Shown here one piece after another: positions 14,246 through 62,238 of a stretch of 64,000 bases of DNA (the stretch's first letter is position 1; each line of letters begins with the position of its first letter). The notes beneath the pieces were generated by a model, which did no database searches, was not told the origin of the DNA, and saw only the letters and a list, made by a program, of their open reading frames with translations. The stretch is taken from contig JAQTMH010000001.1 in NCBI GenBank assembly GCA_028714495.1, positions 179,814 to 243,813 on the forward strand. Direction: 5' to 3'. The translations under genes were made by a program, and so were the position numbers. This DNA comes from Patescibacteria group bacterium (GTDB lineage Bacteria > Patescibacteriota > Patescibacteriia > JAHIZJ01).

Positions 14246-14738
14246 GGTACTAGATAAACTCATTTGATCCTAAACAATAAATTTTATTACCTAATCTTAG
14301 CCAAAATACCCTGTTGATAACTTATTGGCTCTAGGCATTGACAATTTGTCCGACATCTTCTATGCTTGGGGGCTTAGAAGACAAAACAAAATCTTTACAA
14401 TATAATATTAATAGTATCCGTGAGGCGATGAACTGCAGCCTGAATCTGGTCGCTTTCCCCCTAGAGTTTATTAAACTTTTGGGGGCGGGCTGCGGGGAGC
14501 TAGTAGCGAAACCGACATGGCGGAGGAAGTCCTTCGATACCAAAAACTGCCGCCGCCTCACGCCCAAGAGGCGTTTTTTGTTGGCCTGACCTTATTACCG
14601 GTTGCCTTTAGTGAAATACCTAAAGACAGCCGGTTTGTAAGGTTACTAAGCTCTTTGACAACACGGTGTAAGCGGAACAAAACGCCGAAATACAGCGCGA
14701 AGTTGTTTTCGGGGTTACCACAAAAAGGAGGACCGGTC

Positions 14739-25265: not shown

Positions 25266-26770
<1,505 letters not shown>

Positions 26771-26993: not shown

Positions 26994-27476
26994 CTAAACA
27001 AAAGACAAAACAAATCCGATTAATAGCCCAAAAACAAGAATAAAGCTGGCAAATTTCAATATTTTAGATTTCGGTTTTATCGAGTAATTCGTCATCGTCC
27101 AAATTTCGCGCATATATTCCTCGGCCATTTTATCGTCAGAATCGAATACCTTCTTCAATTTATCTTCGTATTCTTCGAGTCCTTTGTCCGAAAAACCCCA
27201 CCAGCAAATAAAACTAAGGCGTTCTTTCCGCTTTCCGCGAAAAGGAAGAAAAACAACAGTTATCGCCATAACGAGCGTAATAAAGGAGCTGATGGCCAGT
27301 ACCAAAAAATTTGAGGCCTCAATGCGAATCATACTCAATCCAAAGATAACCGCGGCGATGCCAACCAAGAAAGAAGCTTTCTGGTCCAAACTGCCCCGCA
27401 GGCTGTTTTGAAGAGTAAGTGAATCACGCAATAAATTAATCGAGTTTTGATTGACTACCATATTTTTATCGATCAA
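26994..27476 (-). CDS. hypothetical membrane protein
   Basis: 160-aa ORF with two central TM helices and one C-terminal TM helix; adjacent to tRNA cluster. Confidence 0.4.
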   Translation of the reverse strand: MIDKNMVVNQNSINLLRDSLTLQNSLRGSLDQKASFLVGIAAVIFGLSMIRIEASNFLVLAISSFITLVMAITVVFLPFRGKRKERLSFICWWGFSDKGLEEYEDKLKKVFDSDDKMAEEYMREIWTMTNYSIKPKSKILKFASFILVFGLLIGFVLSFV

Positions 27477-27570
27477 TTATCAAACTGCATAATCAAATTA
27501 TAACCATTAGTTTATCCATCGTTCTTGATTGGTCGGGGATCGCGGACTCGAACCGCGGACCTCTCGCTCC

Positions 27571-27846
27571 CCCGCCCGACTGCCATGTAATATTTCTGTC
27601 AAACTATTGGTTGGGACGGCGAGCCTCGGATTATAATCCGAGGGAAATTGCTGTCTTCCCGCACCGAGTCGGGGTGCGCGGACTTGAACCGCGGACCTCT
27701 CGCTCCCAAAGCGAGCGTTCTAGCCAACTGAACTACACCCCGACTCGAGGCAGGACGTGCTTCTGCACTACGCCCCGACCAATCGCTGGACTGAACAATT
27801 GTAATTATCAAAGTATAGAGCAACGTAAGCAGCCAGGGCGGGCGGG
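27571..27846 (-). other. 276-nt intervening sequence in tRNA-Pro carrying tRNA-Pro copy B; termini cccgcccg...cgggcggg
   Basis: begins cccgcccgccctggctgc and ends ggcagtcgggcggg in tRNA orientation; no ORF; no recognisable group I P/Q/R/S elements by eye. Confidence 0.5.
27669..27742 (-). tRNA. tRNA-Pro(TGG), intact, no encoded CCA, nested in the insertion
   Basis: cggggtg ta gttc agttggcta gaac g ctcgc tttggga gcgag aggtc cgcgg ttcaagt ccgcg caccccg a. Confidence 0.8.
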
Positions 27847-28046
27847 CAAAGCGAGCGTTCTAGCCAACTGAACTAATCCCCGATGAAAAAATCCCATGTT
27901 TGGGAAAAGCTTTTCTTGTTTTTATATTTTAAGCCTGTTTTTATTACCCGCTGGTGCCGAGGGCCGGAATCCCGCACCACGCAGGGTGCGGGACAAGTCG
28001 AACCAGCATAATTATGAAATGGGCCTCTTTAGTAATTCCGCCCAAA

Positions 28047-28119
28047 TGCCTGGGGTCGGAGTTGAACCGACGACGCAAGGATTTTCAGTCCTTCGCTCTA
28101 CCACCTGAGCTACCCAGGC
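28047..28119 (-). tRNA. tRNA-Phe(GAA), no encoded CCA
   Basis: gcctggg ta gctc aggtggta gagc g aagga ctgaaaa tcctt gcgtc gtcgg ttcaact ccgac cccaggc a; flanked by inverted repeat aattccgcccaaatgcc / ggcatttgggcggaatt. Confidence 0.85.
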
Positions 28120-28182
28120 AGGCATTTGGGCGGAATTGATTTCACAGTAGGATTATATTAGCATATTTCAGTCCGGAGTTCA

Positions 28183-28225
28183 CCCCGTGCTTGTCACGGG
28201 GCTCTACCGACTGAGCTACCTCGGC
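28183..28225 (-). pseudogene. tRNA 5'-half-like fragment fused to GC hairpin
   Basis: gccgagg ta gctc agtcggta gagc followed by perfect hairpin ccccgtg-acaag-cacgggg; no T-arm or acceptor 3' strand found. Confidence 0.35.
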
Positions 28226-28258
28226 AAGTGCCCACGGCACCAGCGGGAAATCAATATT

Positions 28259-28299
28259 TGGTGGGCGATCCAGGAGTCGAACCTGGGACCTCGTCATTA
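28259..28299 (-). pseudogene. tRNA 3'-half fragment (Ile-like), CCA encoded, no matching 5' half
   Basis: taatgacgag gtc ccagg ttcgact cctgg atcgccc a cca; closely resembles the 3' half of tRNA-Ile(GAT) at 28396-28472 but with a different acceptor. Confidence 0.45.
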
Positions 28300-28334
28300 C
28301 CCGCCCGACTGCTCCGCACTCGGAGGCGGGCGGG
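28300..28334. repeat. 35-nt palindromic element sharing termini with the tRNA-Pro intervening sequence
   Basis: cccgcccgactgctccgcactcggaggcgggcggg; termini cccgcccg/cgggcggg; same cccgcccgactgc start as the 276-nt insertion; abuts the tRNA 3' half in its anticodon-loop position. Confidence 0.5.
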
Positions 28335-28395
28335 TGACCCCGCACAACTCGCCAGAGCTCGTTTGCGGGGCAGGCGCGCTGAACTCACAGGCGGA

Positions 28396-28472
28396 TGGTG
28401 GGCATGGGAGGAGTCGAACCTCCGACCTCGTCATTATCAGTGACGCGCTCTAACCATCTGAGCTACATGCCC
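28396..28472 (-). tRNA. tRNA-Ile(GAT), CCA encoded
   Basis: gggcatg ta gctc agatggtta gagc g cgtca ctgataa tgacg aggtc ggagg ttcgact cctcc catgccc a cca; flanked by ggcggatggtg / caccatccgcc helix. Confidence 0.85.
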
Positions 28473-28807
28473 ACCATCCGCCCATGCTATGTTCTAAAAT
28501 ACACTTCCCGCCTCGCACTCGACGAATAACACGAGGAGTGGTTAGAATTAACCATCTGCTTGCCCTGAACCATTACAGTACAGGGCTTGCCCCGAACCGA
28601 ACGACCGAAGGGAGTTCTGGTTCGGGGAGCTAATCGCCCTCGATCGGTTTTTATGGGGGCACTCTGACTATCCAAATCATTTGCCAAAAAATGTACGGCA
28701 ACTCCCAAACTTTAACAGAAATAGAATGTTTTGACAAGGGGTGCTATAATAACTATAGACTATGGGTATTATCATAATAACTCGATAAAAAGTAAACATT
28801 CAATATA

Positions 28808-38668: not shown

Positions 38669-39595
38669 TCAACCCTGCCTAAGCTCAGTTATTATTTCTT
38701 TGAGTTGGGGAGGAAGGTCAATAAAAAACTTCTTTTCCTGACCAGCCGGATCGACCAAGGTCAAATGGTCGGCACAGAGGAACAGGCTGGTCCAGTGCTT
38801 TAAGCGGATATAACGTTTGATTTGATAAAGATTGTCGCCAACCAGCGGATGCCCTAAGCCGTGAAAATGAGCTCGGATTTGATGGGTTCGACCGGTCAGG
38901 GTGGTTACCTTAACCAGAGTGTATTTAGAAAACCTTTCGATAACTTCATACTCAGTCTCCGCCCATTTGGCGGGTTTCGTGCCAGGGGCGGTTTCTGAAA
39001 CACTGACTATTTTGCCGTCCTTTGAACGCTGCAGAAGGAAATTAATTGTGCCGCTGTCAGGTAAGCCCGCGCCGTAAACTAAAGCGGTGTAGCTTTTTTT
39101 AACAGCGTGAGCCTGAAAAAGCTTTTTGAAATGCTCAAACGCTTCCTGGGTGAGTGCCACGATCATTAAACCCGAAACTTCCTTATCCAGTCGGTGGACA
39201 ATGCCAGGACGCAAAGGGTCGTCACCAACTTTGATGATTTGAGGATATCTTGAAACCAAACCATTAACCAGGGTTTTGCTCTTGGTCGCCTCAGAGGGAT
39301 GGACGACCAGACCGGCCGGTTTATTGATTATCAGATAGTCGGGCGACTCAAAAACCGTCTCCCAGGTAATGGCCGGGTCAGGCGTTAAATCGATTTCCGG
39401 CGGTGATAATATTTCACCCGCGACAACATCGCCGCTCCGCAATTGCTGATGGGGCGAAGCGTCTTTCCCGTTGACCGATACCTGACCAGCGATAATCTGT
39501 TTCTGAATCCAGCTCCGGCTATAGCCCGGGAGCTGCAGACGAAGATAGATATCAAGCCGTTCTCCGTTTTTTTCGACTGTATATTTTATTTCCAT
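38669..39595 (-). CDS. rluD: RluA-family pseudouridine synthase with S4 domain (RluD-like)
   Basis: N-terminal S4 domain; LVVHPS...HRLDKEVSGLMIVA catalytic motif. Confidence 0.85.
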   Translation of the reverse strand: MEIKYTVEKNGERLDIYLRLQLPGYSRSWIQKQIIAGQVSVNGKDASPHQQLRSGDVVAGEILSPPEIDLTPDPAITWETVFESPDYLIINKPAGLVVHPSEATKSKTLVNGLVSRYPQIIKVGDDPLRPGIVHRLDKEVSGLMIVALTQEAFEHFKKLFQAHAVKKSYTALVYGAGLPDSGTINFLLQRSKDGKIVSVSETAPGTKPAKWAETEYEVIERFSKYTLVKVTTLTGRTHQIRAHFHGLGHPLVGDNLYQIKRYIRLKHWTSLFLCADHLTLVDPAGQEKKFFIDLPPQLKEIITELRQG

Positions 39596-41048
39596 ATTGA
39601 CGATCTAAAAATCCGAGGGCTTGCTTTTTAGTCCGTATCTTGCCCCGAAGCTGGGTTGCTCTCAATTGATGGATTATCTCTCCAATCAGAGGGCCAGGTT
39701 TAAGTTTTAATCGGGACATGATATCACGGCCGTTGAGCAAAATTTTCGGTTGCTTCTTTTTTTCATAACCAAGCCTTTTGATTTCCTTGGTCAGTTCCAC
39801 GGCATCGTAAAAATTCTTGAGTGAAGGCTCTCCCTCCATTGACAGACTGGCCGCCTGGTCGGCAAATATCAATTGGAGTAATTTTTGGCCCAGGGTCGGC
39901 TCGAGAAAATATTTTTCAAAGGTCGCCCGGTTAAACTTTATCGGGGAAGTGTGGGTAATGATCAAGTGGTAATGAATCAGCCAGGCCAGATGGCTTGAGT
40001 CAACTTTGCCCTGGTAACTTGAAAGGCGTAGACGTTCGGCGATATCAAAAGCCAGTTCGCCCCCTACTTGTTCGTGGCCGTAAAATGACAAGTGGTGGTT
40101 TAATCTAAGCTTCCGGGTATACGGCTTGCCGAGATCATGAAACAAAGTTGCTAAAATCAATTCTAAATCTGGCTTTACTCCTGGAAAATGCTTGTGAAAC
40201 ATCGGCGAAAATAAACGCTCCAACGCCAACCGGGTATGCGTCCAGACGTCGCCCTCAGAATGATATTCGGGTCCCTGCTGGCAATCTTTCAGATGAAGCA
40301 GCTCGGGGATCAAAGTCCGAAAAACGCCGCTTAATTCAAAAACATCAAACGCCCGCACCGCGTCAGCTTCAAAAGACTTGAGCAATTCGCGAGCGACTAT
40401 TTCCCGAGGCAGCTTTGAATTATTAAGAAACCCGATCATGGCTTTTGTTGCCTGCCAGGTTTTTGATTCAAAAGTAAACCGAAGCTGAATGGCCAGTCGC
40501 AGACCTCTCAAAATCCGCGAGTAGTCCTCTTGAAAACGTTTTTCGGTCTGTCCAACCGCCCGAATTATTCCAGCGGCTAAATCAGACAGTCCACCAGTTG
40601 GGTCAATGAGTTTTTTTCGCTTTAAATCCCAGGCCAGAGCGTTTATGGTGAAATCGCGCCTCAATAAATCTTCTTCAATCGGCATCTGATAATCAGTCTT
40701 GACCGCGAACTCGCGGTACCCGCCAGCCAGGTACAGCGAGTGTTCAGTCCGAGGTAGAGCAATATCGATCGGCTCGCCAAGAACAGAGTCTTTGGGCTGG
40801 AATTTAAATACCCCGAACGTTTTCCCTACCAGGTCAACTCGACCGAGACTTTTTAAAAATTTCTCCAGGGTGGCGGGCTTTACTCCGGAAATGACAAAGT
40901 CATAATCTTTTGAAGGCCGCCCCAAAATGATATCTCGAACCATGCCCCCAACCAGATACGCTTTGGCCTGGGGGAATTTTTTGAATAGCTTGGCGAAGTA
41001 GCCTAGGCTCGTTTCCTTGGCAATTGTTTGAGCGATATTTTCCATCAC
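39552..41048 (-). CDS. cca: tRNA nucleotidyltransferase (CCA-adding enzyme) with HD domain
   Basis: LVGGMVRDIILGRPSKDYDFVISG PolB-type head; HD domain (LFHDLGKP) C-terminal. Confidence 0.8.
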   Translation of the reverse strand: MMENIAQTIAKETSLGYFAKLFKKFPQAKAYLVGGMVRDIILGRPSKDYDFVISGVKPATLEKFLKSLGRVDLVGKTFGVFKFQPKDSVLGEPIDIALPRTEHSLYLAGGYREFAVKTDYQMPIEEDLLRRDFTINALAWDLKRKKLIDPTGGLSDLAAGIIRAVGQTEKRFQEDYSRILRGLRLAIQLRFTFESKTWQATKAMIGFLNNSKLPREIVARELLKSFEADAVRAFDVFELSGVFRTLIPELLHLKDCQQGPEYHSEGDVWTHTRLALERLFSPMFHKHFPGVKPDLELILATLFHDLGKPYTRKLRLNHHLSFYGHEQVGGELAFDIAERLRLSSYQGKVDSSHLAWLIHYHLIITHTSPIKFNRATFEKYFLEPTLGQKLLQLIFADQAASLSMEGEPSLKNFYDAVELTKEIKRLGYEKKKQPKILLNGRDIMSRLKLKPGPLIGEIIHQLRATQLRGKIRTKKQALGFLDRQYGNKIYSRKKRRTA

Positions 41049-41085: not shown

Positions 41086-41637
41086 CTACCTTGGGGTGAC
41101 GGGTGCCGGCGAATGAGACAGATAATACTTAGCGGATTCTCGAGAAATGTGCAGACCCGAACAAAGGCGGGCCCTGAGCTTGACGACCTGGAAATCAGAC
41201 CTTTCCGGGTCATCAGTCAATTCGATCTCATCCCAGTGATGAGTAATCAGTCCAGCCATGGCGGCTTCTTTCACCCGATAGGCCATAAGCGCCTCTGGAC
41301 AATGAATCGGCTCATCTCCATGAAGCTTAGCCAACACATTGCCTATGGTGTTAGCCAAAACAGCGATTTCATACAGCTCCGAAGCCAAATCTAGGGCATC
41401 AATCTCTAGTTCCTTGAAGGCCTGACCGAACGGCTCTAGGTCTTCAAACGTAAGCCGTTCCTTCGTTCGCTGGAGACATTCCCTCAATAGAAGACGGCCT
41501 AGTGGTGAGACTAATAGTTCTTTGGCTCCGTGGTATCTCCTAACTAGATCATGGAAATCGTCCGGGTTCAGCTGATGGGCTGGTTTACCGAAAAAACTCC
41601 TAACCGGGGTATGCCTTCTATGCGGTTTGCGTTTCAT
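41086..41637 (-). CDS. hypothetical protein (G+C-rich patch adjoining tRNA-Val)
   Basis: track ORF runs into tRNA-Val; internal start MKRKPHRRH preferred; no family recognised. Confidence 0.35.
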   Translation of the reverse strand: MKRKPHRRHTPVRSFFGKPAHQLNPDDFHDLVRRYHGAKELLVSPLGRLLLRECLQRTKERLTFEDLEPFGQAFKELEIDALDLASELYEIAVLANTIGNVLAKLHGDEPIHCPEALMAYRVKEAAMAGLITHHWDEIELTDDPERSDFQVVKLRARLCSGLHISRESAKYYLSHSPAPVTPR

Positions 41638-41730
41638 GGCGCTTCTCCTTCTCTTCCGATGGGCTGTTCTAAAAAGAACGAGGGTTGTATGTGCTCGGGT
41701 GGGCGGGGTGATCTCCATCCCCCATCTTCC

Positions 41731-41807
41731 TGGTGCGCGTACCTGGACTTGAACCAGGGACCTCCACAATGTCAATGTGGCGCTCTAACCAACTGAGCTA
41801 TACGCGC
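41731..41807 (-). tRNA. tRNA-Val(GAC), CCA encoded
   Basis: gcgcgta ta gctc agttggtta gagc g ccaca ttgacat tgtgg aggtc cctgg ttcaagt ccagg tacgcgc a cca; flanked by ccatcccccatcttcc / ggaagatgggggat helix; partial copy aatgtggcgctctaaccaac plus hairpin cccccgtgaaaacggggg upstream. Confidence 0.85.
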
Positions 41808-42071
41808 GCACTAGGAAGATGGGGGATCAATGTGGCGCTCTAACCAACCTTGCCCCCGTGAAAACGGGGGTGAGCTAGACGCCCACCTGAACAAACAAAA
41901 TAAATTTAACGACATACATAATCACTTCTTACCTCATAGTGAGCATGCCCCGGATTATCCCCGATTAAATCGGGGACGGGGGACCCCCTGCCTTATAGCG
42001 ACGCTTCTGATATTATGGAAAGGTGTTGTAGCGTCGATATATCGATGACCTACCTATTTATTCACATTCTC

Positions 42072-42148
42072 ATGGTGGGCATGGATGGATTTGAACCATC
42101 GACCCCCGTCTTATAAGGGCGGTGCTCTAACCGCTGAGCTACATGCCC
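42072..42148 (-). tRNA. tRNA-Ile with TAT anticodon (tentative), CCA encoded
   Basis: gggcatg ta gctc agcggtta gagc a ccgcc cttataa gacgg gggtc gatgg ttcaaat ccatc catgccc a cca; same acceptor as tRNA-Ile(GAT); one C-A mismatch in anticodon stem. Confidence 0.6.
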
Positions 42149-42273
42149 ACCATGAGAATTAAATTGTATAGGTCATCGCTATAAGGGCGGTGTCCCGATC
42201 GGCTTGGCCGCGTCAAGACTGCCTACCCCAAAATATGCCCTAACTTTCCGCCAAATATATTCAATTTCTGTGG

Positions 42274-43260
42274 CTATCTTACTCCTGGCTGAGATTTCCG
42301 TCCAGCCAGACGTTCTGCCCACATTATTATTTTGCTCAACTTTTTTCCTTGGTCCAGTTTGAGAAAAAACAGTACCCAGGCGCTAAATTGAAAAGACGAG
42401 AGAACAGAGCCAACGAATACCGTAACCAGAAGAATAATAGCCGTCAGGACGTAGAGCAAAACATTGCTGGCGCCGGCCATACCCTGACTTAAAATCACAA
42501 CCAGGAGAAGGAACGGAACAGAAACTATTACCAGTACAATTATCAAACCGAGGCTGACAATAAAATTAATAACGAATATTATTACGGCCATCTCGATACT
42601 GGCCAGCCAATTTTTTATAAAAAGCTTCCAGCCTGACCGCACTGCCTCAGTCAGAGTTTGGCCCCGGGCGACCACGTAGCAAGCCGCGTATTTTGCCACA
42701 AAGCCAATAATCAAGCTAACGGCGAATGAAAGTAAAATCATTATCACGCTGACCACCACTCCAATAACCCCAAAAGCCACCAGCGAGGCGACCAAACCAG
42801 TCAGGATCAAGAAAATATAGTCAGCGATTTTCGCCAAAAGATAGACAATAAGGTTTTTCCAAAAATGTTTCTGGCCGATGGCAAAGGCTTGATTATACGC
42901 AACCGCCTTGCCGTTTTCAGCCTGGATCGTACTGTGGATTATCCCGCCCACCGAAATTACCGTCAGCCAAACCACTAGGATTAAAAGTAAAACAAACACC
43001 AGCATGACCACCACCGCGGTCAATGTGGTCGAGCTCACCAGTCCCCAGGCATCGGAAAATATTCCGCCAAAACCGCTTTTAAAAAGCTCACGCCAGCTGT
43101 CTAGAGATAGGGAACCCTCGGTTTGAAGATAATAATTCCTGATAAGAGTCTCAACCTCCTGGCCAATCCAGACCAGAAACAATCCAAAAAACCACAAAAA
43201 TTTATTGCGCCAAATGATTCTCCAGGCTTTTTTAATAATGTCGTTGTAAATGGAAACCAT
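42274..43260 (-). CDS. hypothetical polytopic membrane protein
   Basis: 328 aa, six or more TM helices. Confidence 0.45.
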   Translation of the reverse strand: MVSIYNDIIKKAWRIIWRNKFLWFFGLFLVWIGQEVETLIRNYYLQTEGSLSLDSWRELFKSGFGGIFSDAWGLVSSTTLTAVVVMLVFVLLLILVVWLTVISVGGIIHSTIQAENGKAVAYNQAFAIGQKHFWKNLIVYLLAKIADYIFLILTGLVASLVAFGVIGVVVSVIMILLSFAVSLIIGFVAKYAACYVVARGQTLTEAVRSGWKLFIKNWLASIEMAVIIFVINFIVSLGLIIVLVIVSVPFLLLVVILSQGMAGASNVLLYVLTAIILLVTVFVGSVLSSFQFSAWVLFFLKLDQGKKLSKIIMWAERLAGRKSQPGVR

Positions 43261-43317: not shown

Positions 43318-45144
43318 TTATGCTAAAGGTTTTTTATCAAAGAGGGCGTTAAACTCCGCTTGTTCAATCGTCTCTTTCTTGAGCAATAAACCAGCCAGCT
43401 GTTCGATTTTCGGTTTCATCTGAATAATGATTTTTTGGGCTCTGACATAGCACTGGCGAATTATTTTATTAACTTCGCGGTCGATTTGTGTAGCCGTAGC
43501 GTCGCCGTAATCCTGCTGCTCATGGATTTCCCGGCCCAGAAAAATCATTTCCTCGTGCTCGCCATAAGTGCGCGGACCGAGAGTGTCGCTCATGCCATAA
43601 CGGGTTACCAGCTTCCGGGTCAACTGAGTAGCTTCTTTCAGATCATTGCTGGCTCCGGTCGTAACCTCATTAAAAATATATTTCTCCACGGCGTGGCCAG
43701 CCAATAATACTGAGATTTCATCTATAAAATACGAACGAGAATGAAGATGTCTGTCTTCGGTCGGAAGCTTCAGGGTGTAACCGGCGGCGCTGCCCCGCGA
43801 CATGATCGAAACTTTTCGGATTGGATCGGCGTGCGGTGAAAAATGAGCCACAATGGCGTGGCCAGCCTCGTGAAAGGCCGCGATTTTTTTCTCCGTTTGA
43901 TTGAGTATATGGCTTTTGCGTTCCGGGCCCAGTAAAACCTTATCAATGCTTTCAAGGCATTCATCCATCGTCACTTTCTTTTTATTCCGCCGGGCGGTTA
44001 AAATCGCCGCCTCATTCAGCAAATTAGACAAATCAGCTCCGGAAAAACCCGGCGTCCGTTCAGCCAAGCTGCGCAAGTCAATATCCGGGGCCAGGGGCTT
44101 GCCCAGGGCGTGGACTTTGAGAATCGCCTCTCGGTCGCCGATATCCGGAAGATCAAGCATCACGCGGCGGTCAAAACGACCGGGCCTGAGCAAGGCCGGA
44201 TCGAGAACATCAGGCCGGTTCGTAGCCGCCATCACAATCACGTTTGTGTCAGTGTCAAAACCGTCCATCTCAACCAAAATTTGGTTCAGGGTCTGTTCGC
44301 GCTCGTCGTGCGAGCCGCCCAAACCCGAGCCGCGCTGCCGGCCAACCGCGTCTATCTCATCGATAAAGATTATGCAGGGCGCGGTTTTCTTTGCCCGCTT
44401 GAATAAATCGCGGACGCGTGAAGCGCCGACACCAACGAACATTTCGACAAACTCCGAGCCGGAAATATGAAAAAAGGGCACGTTGGCTTCACCGGCCACG
44501 GCTCTAGCCAATAATGTTTTTCCGGTTCCCGGCGGTCCGATCAGCAAAACGCCCTTGGGAATCCTAGCGCCCAGGGAAAGAAACCGCCGCGGCGTTTTAA
44601 GGAATTCAACGACTTCGGCTAATTCTTCCTTGGCTTCCTTAACGCCAGCCACGTCTTTAAACAAAATTCGGTTCTTAATATTGTTCTGATTTTCTCGGGC
44701 GCGGCTTTGGCCAAAAGTCATGGCCCGGTTGTTGCTTCCCTGAACCTGCCGCAACATGAAATAAATAAACCCGCCAATCAGCAAAAATGGCAGAAGAAAA
44801 GGCAGCAGCGTGCCCAGCCAGAAAGAAGTGCTGGAATCCGGCCTGACCTCGACATTCAAGCCTTTGATCTTTTCTTCAGCCACACCATAATTTTTCAAAA
44901 GGTCGCTTAAGGATTCAGTTGTCTCCTTATTGGCCGTTTGTTTTGTTCCATCATTGAGGCTGATATTGAGCTTGCTGCCTTCGACAATTATTTGTTTAAC
45001 GTCGGATTTTTCAATCTCTTGAACTAGCTGATTCAGGCTTACGACACCGACTTTTTGAGTTGTCGCTTGGTACAAACTGAACAAGCCCCCTACTAGCAAG
45101 AAGATTATTACAAAGACAATAAAGTTTTTTAGAGTTTTACTCAT
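43318..45144 (-). CDS. ftsH: ATP-dependent zinc metalloprotease FtsH
   Basis: AAA Walker [12 protein letters not shown], zinc motif HEAGHAIV. Confidence 0.95.
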
Positions 45145-45269
45145 TGTTTGGTTAAGCTAAGCTAATATATTATAAATGAATTTAGGACTTTTGGCAAATT
45201 TACGCAACAACCGGCTAGCCTGTGTGGCTCCAGGATTTTTTTAGTCTTTGGTTATATCTAATCTCTAAT

Positions 45270-46520
45270 TTAAGCGGCTGGCTGATCAGTGGGGGCCGGC
45301 TTTTCACCGGTAGCATCACCGGTTTCCCCTTTTTCGGCCTCAGGTAAATTTTCAGCAGTTGATGGTTCGGGCTTTTTCTCTTCTGCCTTGGGGCTAGCTG
45401 GTTCTTCTAAGGCTTTAATCGACAGCCCCAGGCGGTGATTGTCTGGTTCAATCGACAGAATTTTGAAATCGCGCACTTCTCCTTCTTTGACAATGTCTCC
45501 AGGGTGGCGGACAAGTTTTGAAGAAAGTTCCGATATATGCGCTAGCCCATGGATATCTTTATCCAGTTCGACAAACACGCCAAAGGGATTAAGCTTTAAC
45601 ACCTGACCTTTAACTACCTGACCGACCTTGTATTTATTAATCGCTTTTCTCCAGGGATCCTCCAGCAATTGCTTCAAACTTAGAGATATCCGGGCGTTAT
45701 CCAGGCTGATTATTTTCGCTTTTACCTTATCGCCGACTTTAATAATGTCCCGCGGGTCATCAATTCTCTGCCAGGCTAACTCCGATATGTGAACCAGGCC
45801 CTCGAGCCCGTCGCCGAATTCCACGAACGCTCCAAAATCAACCACGCCCGTAACCTTGCCTTCGACGATCTCTCCCAGCTTGTATTTTCCAATGGCTTCT
45901 TTCTGTTTTTCCTCCCAAGCCATTTTTTCGGAAACGATCAATTTTTCCTCGGCTTCATCAACATCAATTACCCGAACGCGGAAGTTCTGGCTAATGTATT
46001 GATTCAGCCTTTCCAAGATTTTATCTTTGTCGCCGCCCTCGACGCGCGGATAGTGCTCGACGGTCAGCTGGGAAACCGGTAAAAAACCGGCCACCCGTCC
46101 GACTTTTATCATCAAGCCGCCGCGGTTGGCCTCCGTGATCTCGGCGTCGACAATCTGTTTATCGCCCATCAGCTTGATTAGATTGTCCCAGGCTTTCTTG
46201 TGGCCGGCCTGACGGAAAGAAAGTTCCATCACGCCCTTCTCGTTTTCCAATTCCAGCACCGTGGCTTGGACCGTATCGCCTACCTTGACGTCAGTGTACT
46301 CCCCCGATTCATCGAAAAGCTCCCGGCCGCGCACCAGCCCGCTGCTTAAACCCTCAATGTCAACATGCGCCTCGTTTTTTGAGACGCTTAGGACTTTTCC
46401 CTCGATAATATCCCCGACTCGGGGTATTTTCATCAGCCCCTGCTCATCCAAAAGCTTCTCCATCTCTGAGGGGGGGGTAGGGGCAGCTTCGATATCCTTA
46501 TCTTTCTTAGCTGTTTTCAT
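45270..46520 (-). CDS. rpsA: 30S ribosomal protein S1 (four S1 domains)
   Basis: repeated S1 domains (GDIIEGKV..., GDTVQATV..., GEIVEGKV..., GQVVKGQV...). Confidence 0.9.
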   Translation of the reverse strand: MKTAKKDKDIEAAPTPPSEMEKLLDEQGLMKIPRVGDIIEGKVLSVSKNEAHVDIEGLSSGLVRGRELFDESGEYTDVKVGDTVQATVLELENEKGVMELSFRQAGHKKAWDNLIKLMGDKQIVDAEITEANRGGLMIKVGRVAGFLPVSQLTVEHYPRVEGGDKDKILERLNQYISQNFRVRVIDVDEAEEKLIVSEKMAWEEKQKEAIGKYKLGEIVEGKVTGVVDFGAFVEFGDGLEGLVHISELAWQRIDDPRDIIKVGDKVKAKIISLDNARISLSLKQLLEDPWRKAINKYKVGQVVKGQVLKLNPFGVFVELDKDIHGLAHISELSSKLVRHPGDIVKEGEVRDFKILSIEPDNHRLGLSIKALEEPASPKAEEKKPEPSTAENLPEAEKGETGDATGEKPAPTDQPAA

Positions 46521-51439: not shown

Positions 51440-51630
51440 CCTTCGGGATGGGCCATCTTTTCGACCGAAGATTGGCAATATTTAATAGGGTATCCTGACT
51501 TATGGAGGAATTGCTCGTTGCGCCTTCCCACCCAGCCCATCACGATAGGCTGGACAGTGGCTTTTCACAACTTGCTTCTCCACTTACAGTGGCGGGACCG
51601 CGCTGGATTTTCACCAGCTTCCCCTTATAT
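51440..51630 (-). promoter_or_regulatory. cobalamin riboswitch
   Basis: minus-strand reading ggaagctggtgaaaatccagcgcggtcccgccactgtaagtggagaagc...aagtcaggataccc; diagnostic gguGAAAAUCC / CGGUCCCGCCACUGU core and B12-box-like AAGTCAGGA. Confidence 0.75.
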
Positions 51631-51785
51631 GTCTAATTGTTAATAAACTGCGACTTGACCTGTTGTTTTTTAATTCTAGTCTAAGCGTATTATGATGTCA
51701 AATTAGAATTCAAAATTCTAAATGTTAAATCATTGTTTCCGCCTCTCGACCCTGCTCTAGGCGGCTTCCTTCATTTTTAATTCTC

Positions 51786-59468: not shown

Positions 59469-60719
59469 TCAATGGGTAGCGCAAGTCATGCAGGGATCAT
59501 AAGCCCGAATCAGTTTTTTAATGCTGGCGTGGCTGGCTGAATCATTGGTCTTGCCTTTTAAGAAAATCTTCAAATCAGCTTCCAGATTTGCCAGCATCTG
59601 GACAGTCGGGGTAATGATATTGCACTGACGGATAATTCCGTTTTTGTCGATTTCATAATAGTGGTAGAGCGTGCCGCGCGGGGCTTCAACCGCGCCCACC
59701 CCTTGGCCGGCTTTGAGTTTGTAGGCCTTGGCCGGCTGGGTCAATTCGCGCCTGGATAGGGGCTTTAAAAGCTTTTGAACTTCTTCAAGCGAGTGCATTA
59801 TCTCAATCAGCTGAGCGTAAATATTGTAGAAGTTGTTATAAATCGGCCGCGGGGGCAGGTATTTCAAGATTGATTTGGCCTTTGGATTCAGATTCTTTTC
59901 ATTCAAATGCAGTCTGGCCAGCGCGCCAACAAAATAACTCTTAGTTTTCCAAAAAGCTCGTTTCGACATTTCATATGGCCGCTGGATTTCCGTGACATCG
60001 TGTTCAAACTTACCGACTGGGATTTTTAAACCCTGGCTGGAAACGATCTGGTCGCCTTGATAAAAAGTGTATTTATGGCTATCCGTCAGAGCGTAAAATT
60101 CAGTCGGCCGGTTAAATTCGGGAAATTTTACTTTCCGATATACCTCTACCAAAGACCTGGCTTGATTGATTACCCGGGGAATGTCTTGAAGGATCTTTTT
60201 TATCTCGGCCTGAGTGGGAAGTTTTGTAAAGCCTCCAACTTTTGTCCTGAGCGGATGAATGCTCCGGCCGCCGAGCGTGGCAATCAGCCGGTTTCCAAAA
60301 TCACGGATTTTTAAGGCGTTAACCGTAGCTTCAGGAAAGCGCTTGCCCAGATCAAAGGCGTGCTTAAGGCCGAAATAATCACCCAAGGCCATAAAATAAG
60401 CGTGGAGGGCGTGACTTTGAATTGTCTGGCCCAATTCCATCACCTCGCGCAAAATAATATTCTGTGGAGAGAGCGTGATGCCCAGGGCGTTCTCCAGGGC
60501 TTTCAGCGAACAAAGGTTGTGCACCACCGGGCAAACTCCGCAAATCCTGGCGGTAATGAGCGGCGCCTCTTCGTAAGAGCGGCCAACTAAAATCGCCTCA
60601 ATCAAGCGGGCGCCTTCGTGAGTTTTTATCTTGGCTGATTTTATATCGCCGTTTTCAAGATCCGCTTCCAGACCGCCGTGGCCTTCGATTTTCGCGATGT
60701 GTTTTATGGTAATTTTCAT
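59469..60719 (-). CDS. NiFe hydrogenase large (catalytic) subunit, group 3-type
   Basis: N-terminal RICGVCPVVH and C-terminal DPCMTCATH metal-binding motifs. Confidence 0.9.
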   Translation of the reverse strand: MKITIKHIAKIEGHGGLEADLENGDIKSAKIKTHEGARLIEAILVGRSYEEAPLITARICGVCPVVHNLCSLKALENALGITLSPQNIILREVMELGQTIQSHALHAYFMALGDYFGLKHAFDLGKRFPEATVNALKIRDFGNRLIATLGGRSIHPLRTKVGGFTKLPTQAEIKKILQDIPRVINQARSLVEVYRKVKFPEFNRPTEFYALTDSHKYTFYQGDQIVSSQGLKIPVGKFEHDVTEIQRPYEMSKRAFWKTKSYFVGALARLHLNEKNLNPKAKSILKYLPPRPIYNNFYNIYAQLIEIMHSLEEVQKLLKPLSRRELTQPAKAYKLKAGQGVGAVEAPRGTLYHYYEIDKNGIIRQCNIITPTVQMLANLEADLKIFLKGKTNDSASHASIKKLIRAYDPCMTCATH

Positions 60720-60728
60720 CTGGCTTGG

Positions 60729-61505
60729 TTATTTAAATTTTTTCGCTTGGTTGGCTTGATCAATAAGCATTTTTTGGACGCCGTAAACCTGGAGGGCGTG
60801 CTTATATTCCTCTCGGCTGGCAAACGATTCAATCTGTCTTTGCAGGCTGTCTAAATTGGGCTCATTCACCGGCCCCCGACAACCCAGGCACTGCTGGCCA
60901 TGGGTGGTACAAATCGCCCGACAGCCGGCCCGAGTCACTGGCCCGAGGCAAATGATTTTTCGCTGCAAAAGACAGCCGGCTTGAACCAAGGGGCATTCAT
61001 AGCAAACCGGCTGGTCCGGAATCAGCGAGAGCTTACCGTCTTTTATGTCCAAAAGGTTTTGAGCGAATTCTTCATTATTTATCGGGCAGCCGGGAATTAT
61101 ATAATCGACTTTTACGTAATGCGCGATTGGAACTATTTCCGGATTTTCAATTTTATCAATCTGGGAATAGACGTATTTTAACTTTTCGTCCTTACTAACG
61201 TAGTTTTTTATTGCCTGGACGCAACCAATATGCGCGCAGTTGCCCAGGGCGATTAAAAACCCCGATTTATCCCGCATTTCTTTGAGCCGCGCCACGTCAT
61301 CGGCGGTAATGGGCGAGCCCTCGACTATGCCAATATCGTAGTGGGGCCTAGCCGGCAAATCTTCGACCAGGCTGAACTCACCTAAATCGTAATGCTTCAA
61401 TATTTCGAGCAGCCTCTCGCCCAAATCCAAAATGGCGAATTGGCAGCCCTCGCAGCAAGTCAGGCTGATTATCCCGATAACAGGTTTTTTGGGAAAGTTT
61501 GGCAT
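60729..61505 (-). CDS. NiFe hydrogenase small subunit
   Basis: ISLTCCEGCQ proximal-cluster motif; further Cys clusters CYECP, CLGPVTRAGC. Confidence 0.85.
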   Translation of the reverse strand: MPNFPKKPVIGIISLTCCEGCQFAILDLGERLLEILKHYDLGEFSLVEDLPARPHYDIGIVEGSPITADDVARLKEMRDKSGFLIALGNCAHIGCVQAIKNYVSKDEKLKYVYSQIDKIENPEIVPIAHYVKVDYIIPGCPINNEEFAQNLLDIKDGKLSLIPDQPVCYECPLVQAGCLLQRKIICLGPVTRAGCRAICTTHGQQCLGCRGPVNEPNLDSLQRQIESFASREEYKHALQVYGVQKMLIDQANQAKKFK

Positions 61506-61506
61506 A

Positions 61507-62238
61507 TTAAATCGTCAGGTTGGCTAATTTTATCGCTTCGCCGGTGTAACGGCTTAGGTTTTTTACCTGTTTCTGAGTCAAAATCTCGCAGGCGAAATTC
61601 CAATGGAAAGAAACCCAGTCTTTGATCTTAGGTTCCTGAATAAAAGTTTTTTCGTCGAATGAGCGCTGGACCGTTTTTAGTCGGGGCGAGCTTAAACGCA
61701 ACCTTCCCTCAGCCATTTCCAGAAAGCGGCTTTTTACAATTAAAGAATCTTTTTGGATCTCCTGAATCTGGCCCCAGCTCACCCGGCAATTATCCATGGT
61801 TTCGAGAGTGTGGGCAAGCGTTGGGTGGCCGGTATGAACAAAAACGTTAAAAACATGAAAAGTGTGATGCGGTTTGGCGCCTAAAGGGATTTTTCCGAGC
61901 AAATATTCCAGCGAGCGGGGACTAATCCTTTTTTTCAGATTCAAGCCTTCGGTCAAATGACGGTAAAGACCTTTCATGGCGGTTTTTTCCAAAAGATCAT
62001 TGCCGATCCAGTAAGCTTCAACCACTTTTTCATCAAATGCGTCCTCAATTAAATTACTATTGGCAATAAACCTCAAATAAGGCCAAAGGTTTTTGAAATT
62101 TACCAGAATATCCTTCAAGCCCTGATCAACCGTGTGGGTGATGCCATAGTCAAAAAGCGTCCGGTCGGCAGACGGTCCGCAATACGCCAGCCGATTGGGC
62201 ATGAAAGCGTAGGTTGTGCACGAAAGAATGCCTGACAT
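61507..62238 (-). CDS. hypothetical protein within hydrogenase cluster
   Basis: 243 aa between small subunit and EamA gene; start/stop tightly abutting neighbours. Confidence 0.4.
   Translation of the reverse strand: MSGILSCTTYAFMPNRLAYCGPSADRTLFDYGITHTVDQGLKDILVNFKNLWPYLRFIANSNLIEDAFDEKVVEAYWIGNDLLEKTAMKGLYRHLTEGLNLKKRISPRSLEYLLGKIPLGAKPHHTFHVFNVFVHTGHPTLAHTLETMDNCRVSWGQIQEIQKDSLIVKSRFLEMAEGRLRLSSPRLKTVQRSFDEKTFIQEPKIKDWVSFHWNFACEILTQKQVKNLSRYTGEAIKLANLTI

Follow-up and report, generated by a model that had tools for sequence, protein, structure and literature searches.

A tRNA-Ile gene with an encoded UAU anticodon, set among apparently nested tRNA gene fragments, in a Patescibacteria bacterium

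The tRNA-Ile(TAT) gene, its neighbours and its flanking helix

The tRNA-Ile(TAT) gene occupies positions 42073–42148 on the minus strand of the window (the whole 64-kb stretch of DNA analysed), in which ARAGORN recognizes 12 tRNA genes. It is 76 nt long, with the CCA encoded, and, judging from ARAGORN, Rfam, and the cloverleaf, it is intact and appears to be the innermost, functional copy of the nest described below. The coding strand reads GGGCATG TA GCTC AGCGGTTA GAGC A CCGCC CTTATAA in its 5' part and, after CTTATAA, continues with GACGG GGGTC GATGG TTCAAAT CCATC CATGCCC A CCA. The Rfam tRNA model (RF00005) matches the gene with 70.7 bits (gathering score 29, E = 2e-13). The first-pass annotation had proposed a tRNA with a TAT anticodon at 42072–42148; both ARAGORN and Rfam accept a tRNA at this locus, although its start was one nucleotide off and its strand had not been given. 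The anticodon loop had been read as cttataa, and ARAGORN and the cloverleaf bear this out, with the TAT anticodon (tRNA positions 34–36) at 42113–42115 on the minus strand.

The cloverleaf drawn by ARAGORN has stems of 7, 4, 5, and 5 bp with one C·A pair. This pair, C30·A40 (spanning A40 at 42109 to C30 at 42119, minus strand), is the sole non-standard one in the anticodon stem, and the other cloverleaf pairing is perfect. The mismatch, which had made the initial call tentative, is genuine, since A40 also occurs in an independent read-level assembly (Logan contig L145), but the call itself stands. Homologues were collected by scanning a single genome for each species for a 5' half of Ile type that leads into CTTATAA, which gave at least 120 loci. 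In 100 bacterial homologues, the anticodon stem covaries, with 28:42, 29:41, and 30:40 each present in 4–6 pair types; as 99 of these have a standard pair at 30:40, the C·A mismatch is private to the window copy. The corresponding stems are CCGCC/GGCGG in locus L047 and CTGCC/GGCAG (C-G at 30:40) in the syntenic locus L131, so that one G40A transition suffices to explain the mismatch in the window.

The major isoacceptor, tRNA-Ile(GAT), is found at 28396–28472 on the minus strand (ARAGORN, Rfam). As noticed at the outset, the two genes have the same acceptor stem (GGGCATG/CATGCCC); direct comparison confirms this identity, which also extends to the D stem (GCTC/GAGC). Over the whole gene, 62 of 78 aligned columns are identical and, given that tRNA-Ile(TAT) has its own anticodon stem and T arm, it is no recent G34T mutant of the GAU gene.

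Nearly all of the scan matches listed belong to the CPR, including Saccharibacteria-labelled MAGs, Peribacteria, Peregrinibacteria, Parcubacteria, Shapirobacteria, Gottesmanbacteria, Doudnabacteria, Dojkabacteria, Magasanikbacteria, Kerfeldbacteria, and Yanofskybacteria. Non-CPR members among the matches listed are some Ignavibacteria, one Dehalococcoidia, one Bacteroidales, and DPANN archaea. Upstream of the tRNA lies ftsH (43318–45144, minus strand), a conserved neighbour of tRNA-Ile(TAT) across the CPR. Of the 120 loci listed, 17 include ftsH, and in 15 the tRNA follows it on the same strand. The nearest named homologues of the window's FtsH come from Kerfeldbacteria and Falkowbacteria. A full bacterial 16S rRNA gene, standing alone, is also found in the window. 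Between ftsH and the tRNA, a 328-aa multi-pass membrane protein of no known family is encoded (42274–43260, minus strand) and is conserved in relatives. The next gene downstream is tRNA-Val(GAC) (41731–41807, minus strand; ARAGORN, repeats), flanked by a 13-bp inverted repeat and preceded by an outer 5' half; tRNA-Val(gac) accompanies tRNA-Ile(TAT) in 26 loci among the matches listed.

The succession rpsA-ftsH-membrane protein-tRNA-Ile(TAT)-tRNA-Val occupies the same place in all seven relatives compared, and the longer order rpsA-ftsH-328-aa membrane protein-tRNA-Ile(TAT)-tRNA-Val-cca-RluD-like-rplS is fixed in L123, L131, L135–L140, and L143. In every relative examined, both the gene position and the TAT anticodon are kept. 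In a sister strain (GCA_028717285.1, contig JAQUOI010000001.1), the flanking genes show 97–98% nucleotide identity. The downstream RluA/RluD-family pseudouridine synthase was considered as a putative modifier of U34/U36, by analogy with the eukaryotic tRNA-Ile(ΨAΨ). This has a low probability: its architecture (S4 plus PseudoU_synth_2) is that of an ordinary RluD, and it is linked to the tRNA only by position. A weak 2'-5' RNA ligase match was seen for an ORF among the tRNAs of L140, which is differently called in the near-identical L139 and spans tRNA shells; the match was accordingly given no weight.

Beyond its acceptor stem, the tRNA-Ile(TAT) gene is extended by an 11-bp helix, recognized by pairing and covariation, in which the leader strand attctcatggt (42149–42159, minus strand) pairs with the A73-C-C-A of the tRNA plus the trailer tgagaat (42066–42076, minus strand). 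The first-pass annotation had ascribed the same extended flanking helix to tRNA-Ile(GAT). A helix of the same kind is indeed present there, but its sequence differs (gcggatggt/accatccgc), and the helix at tRNA-Ile(TAT) appears to form only the inner part of a larger cassette. The Pro, Phe, Val(gac), and Cys genes carry an analogous helix in looser form. Syntenic relatives display the variants ctcatggt/accatgag, ctcgtggt/accacgag, cccgtggt/accacggg, and ctgatggt/accatcag.

Covariation of the helix was tested on an alignment (A2) of five syntenic relatives, in which 95.8% of the helix cells are paired, vs. 33–50% with the partners slid. Eleven pairs are changed on both sides in this alignment, six of them being flank pairs, and none of 500 shuffles reached the observed covariation score. 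An acceptor helix extension of more than 3 bp was found in none of 79 other bacterial tRNA-Ile(TAT) genes. Because pairing is kept here and the extension is missing in those 79 genes, the helix stands out as a selected feature of this clade. On this comparative evidence, it is considered to belong to the cassette and to be under selection for pairing; it could serve in precursor processing, or as a DNA hairpin used in insertion.

Nested tRNA fragments and their turnover between strains

The surroundings of the gene contain pieces of further tRNA genes. An exact 13-nt copy of tRNA positions 25–37 (CACCGCCCTTATA, 42180–42192, minus strand) sits 68 nt upstream, interpreted as the 5'-half remnant of an outer tRNA-Ile(TAT), at a place where L131 has a complete 5' half. 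A tRNA-3'-half-like sequence is found downstream (41939–41997, minus strand); it would be the decayed 3' half of the same outer gene, consisting of TATAAGGCAGGGGGTC, a T arm with an inserted 24-nt hairpin, and then CATGCTCAC, and its equivalent is intact in L131. Directly after the outer gene's CTTATA comes the putative 5' end of a cassette (GCGATGACC, 42171–42179, minus strand), a motif also present in L131, L143, and L123-like loci. The 3' subterminal motif of the cassette, GGTCATCGATATATCGA (42034–42050, minus strand), is conserved in L131, L135, and L143, and its GGTCATCG part pairs with the 5' end. Further downstream, an outer tRNA-Val(GAC) 5' half with a D-loop hairpin (41827–41886, minus strand) ends at the anticodon (…CCACATTGA) and is conserved in L135, L139, and L143.

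In L131, the flanks are complete: GGGTGCGTAGCTCAGCGGTTAGAGCACTGCCCTTATA is followed by a 182-nt insert with an intact tRNA-Ile(TAT), then by TATAAGGCAGGGGTCGATGGTTCAAATCCATCCGCACCTACCA. With the insert removed, the outer halves give a flawless tRNA-Ile(tat), and their acceptor strands (GGGTGCG/CGCACCT) match each other, not those of the inner gene (GGGCATG/CATGCCC). Farther out in this nest, a third layer is seen in a more advanced state of decay. The tRNA-Pro(TGG) of the window shows the same arrangement, its outer halves (27882–27847 and 27570–27531), separated by a 276-nt insert, splicing to a valid tRNA-Pro; here too, the outer halves (CGGGGAT/ATCCCCG) differ from the inner gene (CGGGGTG/CACCCCG). 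Partial shells surround tRNA-Val(gac), tRNA-Ile(gat), Phe, Leu, and both Gly genes. All 10 flanking fragments of the window have the polarity of a nest: on the strand of the gene, 5' pieces precede it and 3' pieces follow. Fragments with this polarity were also seen in other CPR loci.

Several known types of insert were considered. The Rfam group I intron covariance model gave no match in 27400–28700 or 41600–42300 (E up to 1), and a group I intron was thus rejected as the identity of the insert at the Pro and Ile nests. A bulge-helix-bulge intron was discarded by inspection, as the junctions lack staggered 3-nt bulges 4 bp apart: the tRNA-Pro junction has a 4 × 3-nt internal loop followed by an 8-bp helix, and at the tRNA-Ile junction the bases of the anticodon loop form part of an unbroken helix from which a single C32 bulges out. 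The inserts (182 nt at the Ile nest of L131, 276 nt at the Pro nest of the window) contain no ORF, integrase, or recombinase, only a tRNA and inverted repeats. That the CCCGCCCG…CGGGCGGG palindrome might be a repeat of the genome at large was also considered and rejected, since the window has it at just two sites, each in a tRNA nest.

The leading hypothesis for this architecture is the serial insertion of a tRNA-bearing cassette into its cognate gene. A cassette of ~180 nt (roughly 180–280 nt across nests), made up of inverted repeat, leader, tRNA, trailer, and inverted repeat, would have entered an older tRNA-Ile(TAT) gene at its anticodon loop, just behind CTTATA. The halves of the older gene would then decay on either side, leaving as the working gene the innermost, youngest copy of the stack.

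An improbable alternative is that the flanks form no insertion nest at all, being instead chance matches, assembly artefacts, or tandem duplications, with the helix acting as a terminator or processing stem. A tandem duplication of 55 bp could indeed produce single fragments of the [5' half][tRNA] type, repeats may be wrongly joined in MAG assemblies from short reads, and the two Logan contigs both terminate within the tRNA or just past it. Nevertheless, the outer halves complement each other rather than the inner gene (at Pro, and at Ile in L131) and splice to valid tRNAs, and the uniform polarity of the 10 window fragments points the same way. Mis-assembly is further countered by the recurrence of the same architecture in independent NCBI, JGI, ENA, and Logan assemblies, and by the size of the repeats: these do not exceed 40 nt, whereas the k-mers usually used for assembly do.

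The nests also differ between close strains. The sister strain L143, with flanking genes 97–98% identical to those of the window and an identical membrane protein, has the copy that is intact in the window itself disrupted, with a different intact tRNA-Ile(TAT) inside (GGGTGCA…TGCACCC, stem CTACC/GGTAG). This insert is bounded by the same cassette ends (ACGATGACC … GGTCATCGATATATCGA). The same strain also has a cassette with a new tRNA-Val(gac) in the D loop of the tRNA-Val(gac) that is intact in the window, splitting that gene. The L135 nest appears to have collapsed by recombination between copies. Exactly one intact TAT copy is present in every genome compared.

The broader proposal, still tentative and a little short of an even chance, is that tRNA genes are renewed here by small, protein-free, self-targeting cassettes. 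Each would enter the resident gene of the tRNA that it carries, at the anticodon loop or in some cases the D loop, and the acceptor-extending helix would be part of the mechanism. If this holds, these would be mobile tRNA cassettes, or a tRNA gene replacement, of a previously undescribed kind; the working gene would sit at the centre, enclosed as in a Russian doll by ever more decayed copies, and its renewal would be recent enough to differ between 97–98% identical strains.

AUA decoding and the lysidine system

Isoleucine identity was examined by comparison with E. coli. Nureki et al. are said to have identified, in 1994, A73, C4-G69, U12-A23, A35, U36, A37, and A38 as determinants for the E. 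coli isoleucyl-tRNA synthetase (IleRS), with the C29-G41 pair reportedly a minor one. All seven of the former are present in tRNA-Ile(TAT), and A73, C4-G69, U12-A23, A37, and A38 are as in the genome's tRNA-Ile(GAU). C29-G41 is absent: tRNA-Ile(TAT) has G29-C41 and the genome's tRNA-Ile(GAU) has U29-A41. As the 29-41 pair varies among GC, AT, TA, and CG in tRNA-Ile(TAT) homologues, it does not act as a determinant in this lineage and is no defining feature of the family.

The codon served by this tRNA is well used, with 152 AUA among 12,273 codons (12.4 per 1000), i.e., 17% of the isoleucine codons, in 28 long ORFs. Its meaning can be read from ftsH: across 119 homologues, the columns of its seven ATA codons contain 59% Ile, 20% Leu, 11% Val, and 1.2% Met, resembling the ATT and ATC columns; AUA is thus an isoleucine codon in this organism, for which a decoder is needed. 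One could still suppose that the UAU tRNA is not charged with isoleucine: AUA could have been given another meaning, such as the Met it has in many mitochondria, or the tRNA could have a non-translational role. Altered genetic codes do occur in some CPR lineages, which counts in favour of this supposition. The ATA columns are, however, unlike the ATG ones (56% Met), so that reassignment appears largely refuted by the codon comparison, and the identity with tRNA-Ile(GAU) in acceptor stem, D stem, A73, A37, and A38 also speaks against charging with another amino acid. Such an exception is accordingly regarded as extremely improbable.

It is very likely, then, that the gene specifies a functional tRNA-Ile with a gene-encoded UAU anticodon and that this is the AUA decoder of the Patescibacteria bacterium. 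We infer that tRNA-Ile(UAU) would be charged by IleRS, and that its U34, modified or not, would pair with the A of AUA. An IleRS adapted to U34 is marked by Arg or Lys at the position of E. coli Trp905, or by being of the eukaryote type; there is no ileS within the window or in the ~12 kb beyond its ends. Class-Ia synthetases near the tRNA in nine loci were examined as candidates for IleRS and set aside, their C-terminus being of the ValRS type.

The usual alternative, a tRNA-Ile2(CAU) modified by TilS, was looked for at several scales. Neither the 64-kb window nor the ~12 kb beyond its ends contains a tilS, and tblastn with E. coli TilS as the query found none in 1.12 Mb of tRNA-Ile(TAT) loci. 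No CAT tRNA is present among the window's 12 tRNAs (ARAGORN), and the 1.12 Mb of related loci likewise lack a CAT isoacceptor. The 328-aa ORF was considered as a divergent TilS and rejected, as its product spans the membrane several times, lacks a PP-loop, and matches nothing in Pfam or NCBIfam. PP-loop ORFs adjoining tRNA(TAT) in L055, L105, and L051 proved to be QueC, QueC, and TtuA, respectively. Southlakia epibionticum has its tilS immediately upstream of ftsH, and Tn-seq scores this tilS as essential (supplement, PMC10633639). In the window's clade there is no tilS upstream of ftsH, and rpsA occupies that position.

At the scale of the phylum, the two systems were compared using the per-amino-acid tRNA counts of 95 complete Patescibacteria genomes (Table S2, Nakagawa et al. 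2026, PMC13011429). At least two non-CAT tRNA-Ile and at most two CAT tRNAs (leaving room only for fMet and Met) are present in 40 genomes, and one non-CAT tRNA-Ile with at least three CAT tRNAs in 50. Five genomes have both (at least two non-CAT tRNA-Ile and at least three CAT), and none has neither (one non-CAT tRNA-Ile and at most two CAT). Fisher's exact test on these counts gives p = 1e-21, a statistic that ignores phylogeny. The classes with at least two Ile and at most two CAT tRNAs (Dojkabacteria, Microgenomatia, Doudnabacteria, most Paceibacteria, and ABY1) are those matched by the scan. With the first of these patterns in 40 of 95 genomes, UAU seems to replace the lysidine system in ~40% of the Patescibacteria, the assignment of the second tRNA-Ile to TAT being deduced from counts, as Table S2 gives no anticodons.

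It remains to weigh whether the UAU gene is a redundant or decaying copy, with tilS and a tRNA-Ile2(CAU) elsewhere in the genome doing the real AUA decoding. The C30·A40 pair, unique among the 100 homologues, weakens the anticodon stem, and the sister strain L143 has this copy already interrupted, with another tRNA-Ile(TAT) in charge, so that individual copies are expendable. Both systems are known together in Cyanothece, Ferrimonas, and L. casei (PMC3575796). Some CPR carry tilS (e.g., Southlakia, adjoining ftsH), and the five of 95 complete genomes fitting both systems include two of the four from ABY1, the class of the nearest named relatives, with two Ile plus three CAT tRNAs. Against this, the cloverleaf is otherwise perfect, with the C·A pair one transition from a standard pair, and the place upstream of ftsH that tilS occupies in Southlakia holds no tilS here. 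No third CAT tRNA accompanies the second tRNA-Ile in 40 of the 45 genomes that have one. Above all, each relative has exactly one intact TAT copy at the locus, and each replacement is again TAT; the keeping of exactly one intact copy per genome is the best evidence for a required function. Redundancy or decay is therefore held to be unlikely, if less so than the other two alternatives weighed above. Reliance of the window's genome on UAU alone, without the tRNA-Ile2(CAU)/TilS lysidine system, is considered probable, with less assurance than the decoding role itself.

Significance and comparison with known systems

TilS and lysidine are usually regarded as close to universal and indispensable across bacteria, with few published exceptions. 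If ~40% of complete Patescibacteria genomes use a plain UAU tRNA, a large share of bacterial diversity solves AUA/AUG discrimination differently. The way in which AUG misreading is avoided, any modification of U34, and the adaptation of IleRS are open to testing in the few cultivable CPR and in enrichments. For annotation, tilS is a standard bacterial marker gene, and its absence in such lineages should not count as genome incompleteness. The nested cassettes, if confirmed, would constitute a new route of tRNA gene turnover, and they already account for the odd ARAGORN calls ('tRNA-???'), partial tRNA matches, and assembly breaks at tRNA loci encountered here.

On present sequence evidence, the gene is a genuine tRNA-Ile(UAU), a known type of solution that is seemingly common in this phylum. 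No match linking lysidine with CPR or Patescibacteria was found in the literature searched. In Mycoplasma mobile, which lacks tilS, tRNA-Ile2(UAU) has an unmodified U34, and IleRS is adapted by Arg865 (Taniguchi et al. 2013, PMC3575796). The present case is similar in that a bacterial tRNA-Ile with a gene-encoded UAU decodes AUA, probably as a replacement of the lysidine tRNA, but the lineage is Patescibacteria and not Mollicutes, and the acceptor and D stems resemble those of its own tRNA-Ile(GAU). A tRNA-Ile3(UAU) is also described in Bifidobacterium, Neorickettsia, and the archaea Nanoarchaeum and Korarchaeum, where UAU replaces CAU and tilS/tiaS is absent (PMC8450103, PMC3575796); Bifidobacterium and Neorickettsia have an IleRS of the eukaryote type (PMC3575796). 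The window-based scan likewise matched archaea of the DPANN. Published counts of bacterial genomes with tRNA-Ile(UAU) amount to 17–19 (PMC8450103, PMC3575796). The first-pass annotation's description of an encoded UAU as known but uncommon thus suits bacteria in general, but not Patescibacteria, in which ~40 of 95 complete genomes fit the count pattern.

In the canonical tRNA-Ile2(CAU), C34 is modified by the essential TilS (lysidine), or to ava2C in some bacteria (PMC11938285). Like this system, the tRNA described here would read AUA as Ile without reading AUG, U34 being encoded instead. The canonical system is present in some CPR (Southlakia), and by the counts the two are mutually exclusive, bar the five of 95 genomes with both. 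In Bacillus subtilis, a tilS-suppressor tRNA-Ile1 G34U supports life without TilS, according to the accounts of Fabret 2011 and Kohrer 2014 given in PMC3575796 and PMC3919564. It shares with the present gene a U at position 34 on a tRNA-Ile with the body of the major isoacceptor. Unlike that laboratory point mutant, the UAU tRNA here appears to be an old, separate lineage, its T arm and anticodon stem being conserved across the CPR.

The nests can be compared with two kinds of insertion in tRNA genes. Integrative elements are of kilobase scale, carry an integrase or recombinase, and usually restore part of the gene (PMC9897764, PMC3293823). As with these elements, insertion in the anticodon loop is common, the tRNA sequence of the insert restores function, and orphan fragments remain; in contrast, the inserts here are of 182–276 nt, have no ORF, and contain a complete tRNA, and the fragments are nested rather than side by side. 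The group I introns of Patescibacteria tRNAs are self-splicing ribozymes at 33/34 to 36/37, never 37/38 (Nakagawa et al. 2026, PMC13011429), whereas the inserts described here have no Rfam intron match and contain a tRNA instead. Kilobase-scale integrative elements and introns are the closest described phenomena, and the nested cassettes are distinct from both.

Turnover of the tRNA-Ile(TAT) locus among strains and relatives

The tRNA-Ile(TAT) gene, whose UAU anticodon is encoded in the gene itself, occupies 42073-42148 (-) as the innermost copy of a nested stack, in which older tRNA gene halves surround the cassette carrying the intact tRNA. Positions 41700-42273 of the window were compared with positions 3988-4790 of L143, the corresponding locus of a sister strain (GCA_028717285.1, JAQUOI010000001.1), the flanks being 97-98% identical. 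The sister strain has one extra nested layer at this locus, and likewise at the tRNA-Val(GAC) locus, and its functional tRNA-Ile(TAT) and tRNA-Val(GAC) genes are not the same as those of the window. Judged from these sequences, the additional layers and the different functional genes indicate that tRNA gene replacement is proceeding on a strain-level timescale.

Nests are also present in syntenic relatives. In one of these (L131, 4560-5040, -), tRNA-Ile(TAT) is found in three nested layers, and the outermost 5' half is additionally interrupted in the D loop by some 80 nt of inserted sequence. The intact tRNA-Ile(TAT) of another (L135) has the leader found in L131's outermost layer together with the inner cassette's trailer, as if recombination had collapsed the nest.

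Two Logan contigs, L144 (SRR22315508) and L145 (SRR22315509), represent independent read-level assemblies of the locus, and both stop within or just past the tRNA-Ile(TAT) gene, which fits nested repeats breaking short-read assembly. Among the matches listed, exact self-fragments, 14 nt or more in length and situated at most 500 nt from a tRNA gene, were found in further loci of the Patescibacteria candidate phyla (CPR) and in one Chlorobiota locus (L027, L099, L108, L114, L037, L119, L080, L052, L081, L117, L072, L093, and L101). Their polarity is that of the window, the 5' fragments lying upstream and the 3' fragments downstream.

Nested tRNA-Pro(TGG) and tRNA-Ile(GAT) genes

Within the window, an inner tRNA-Pro(TGG) gene (27668-27742, -) is enclosed by a second, apparently intact tRNA-Pro(TGG) gene, the whole nest spanning 27531-27882 (-). 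An insert of 276 nt, with CCCGCCCG…CGGGCGGG as its ends, interrupts the outer gene after G35; splicing the outer halves (27882-27847 and 27570-27531, -) yields a valid tRNA that has a compensated acceptor stem of its own.

Directly 3' of the intact tRNA-Ile(GAT) lies a sequence (28259-28354, -) that ARAGORN reports as 'tRNA-???' with the anticodon 'ccga', and for which Rfam makes no tRNA call. A normal tRNA was ruled out here; the sequence represents a tRNA-Ile(GAT)-like shell that has decayed, although its 3' half is still well kept (TAATGACGAGGTC…ATCGCCCACCA). At its anticodon loop sits a 35-nt palindrome with the ends CCCGCCCG…CAGTCGGGCGGG, as in the tRNA-Pro insert.

Other features of the window

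The 16S rRNA gene (25266-26770, +) is solitary, with neither a 23S nor a 5S gene adjoining it. At the universal primer sites its sequence departs from the standard one, reading GGCTGCAG around position 340 and GTGCCAGCAGCAGCGGTAA at the 515 site, and the helix near E. coli position 455 is shorter by about 17 nt. A cobalamin riboswitch (51468-51659, -; 88.5 bits) is located near ribonucleotide reductase, NrdR, and CobA-like genes, and a c-di-GMP-II-GAG riboswitch (14412-14526, +; 45.2 bits) directly 5' of an ORF that precedes a 942-aa peptidase-C25-like protein. Genes for the large and small [NiFe]-hydrogenase subunits (59469-62238, -; Pfam NiFeSe_Hases, Oxidored_q6) lie near a HypC-like gene and an FAD/NAD-binding iron-sulfur protein, the assignments in this region being the Pfam labels of the identical Logan contig L133.

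Gene neighbours of tRNA-Ile(TAT)

The tRNA pair is followed, at 38669-41048 (-), by genes for a CCA-adding enzyme and for a pseudouridine synthase resembling RluD (S4 and PseudoU_synth_2); among the matches listed, one or both of these genes are at most 8 kb from tRNA-Ile(TAT), each of them in about 18 other CPR loci. The AUA-decoding component adjoins ftsH in the CAU-type and UAU-type states alike (window 43318-46520 and related loci; Southlakia). In UAU-type CPR, the order is ftsH-(membrane protein)-tRNA-Ile(UAU), with rpsA in place of tilS, and in the CAU-type Saccharibacterium Southlakia (SEML1_0729/0730), it is tilS-ftsH (supplement of PMC10633639). The ftsH adjacency shared by both AUA-decoding states may be a coincidence or a leftover of the replacement.
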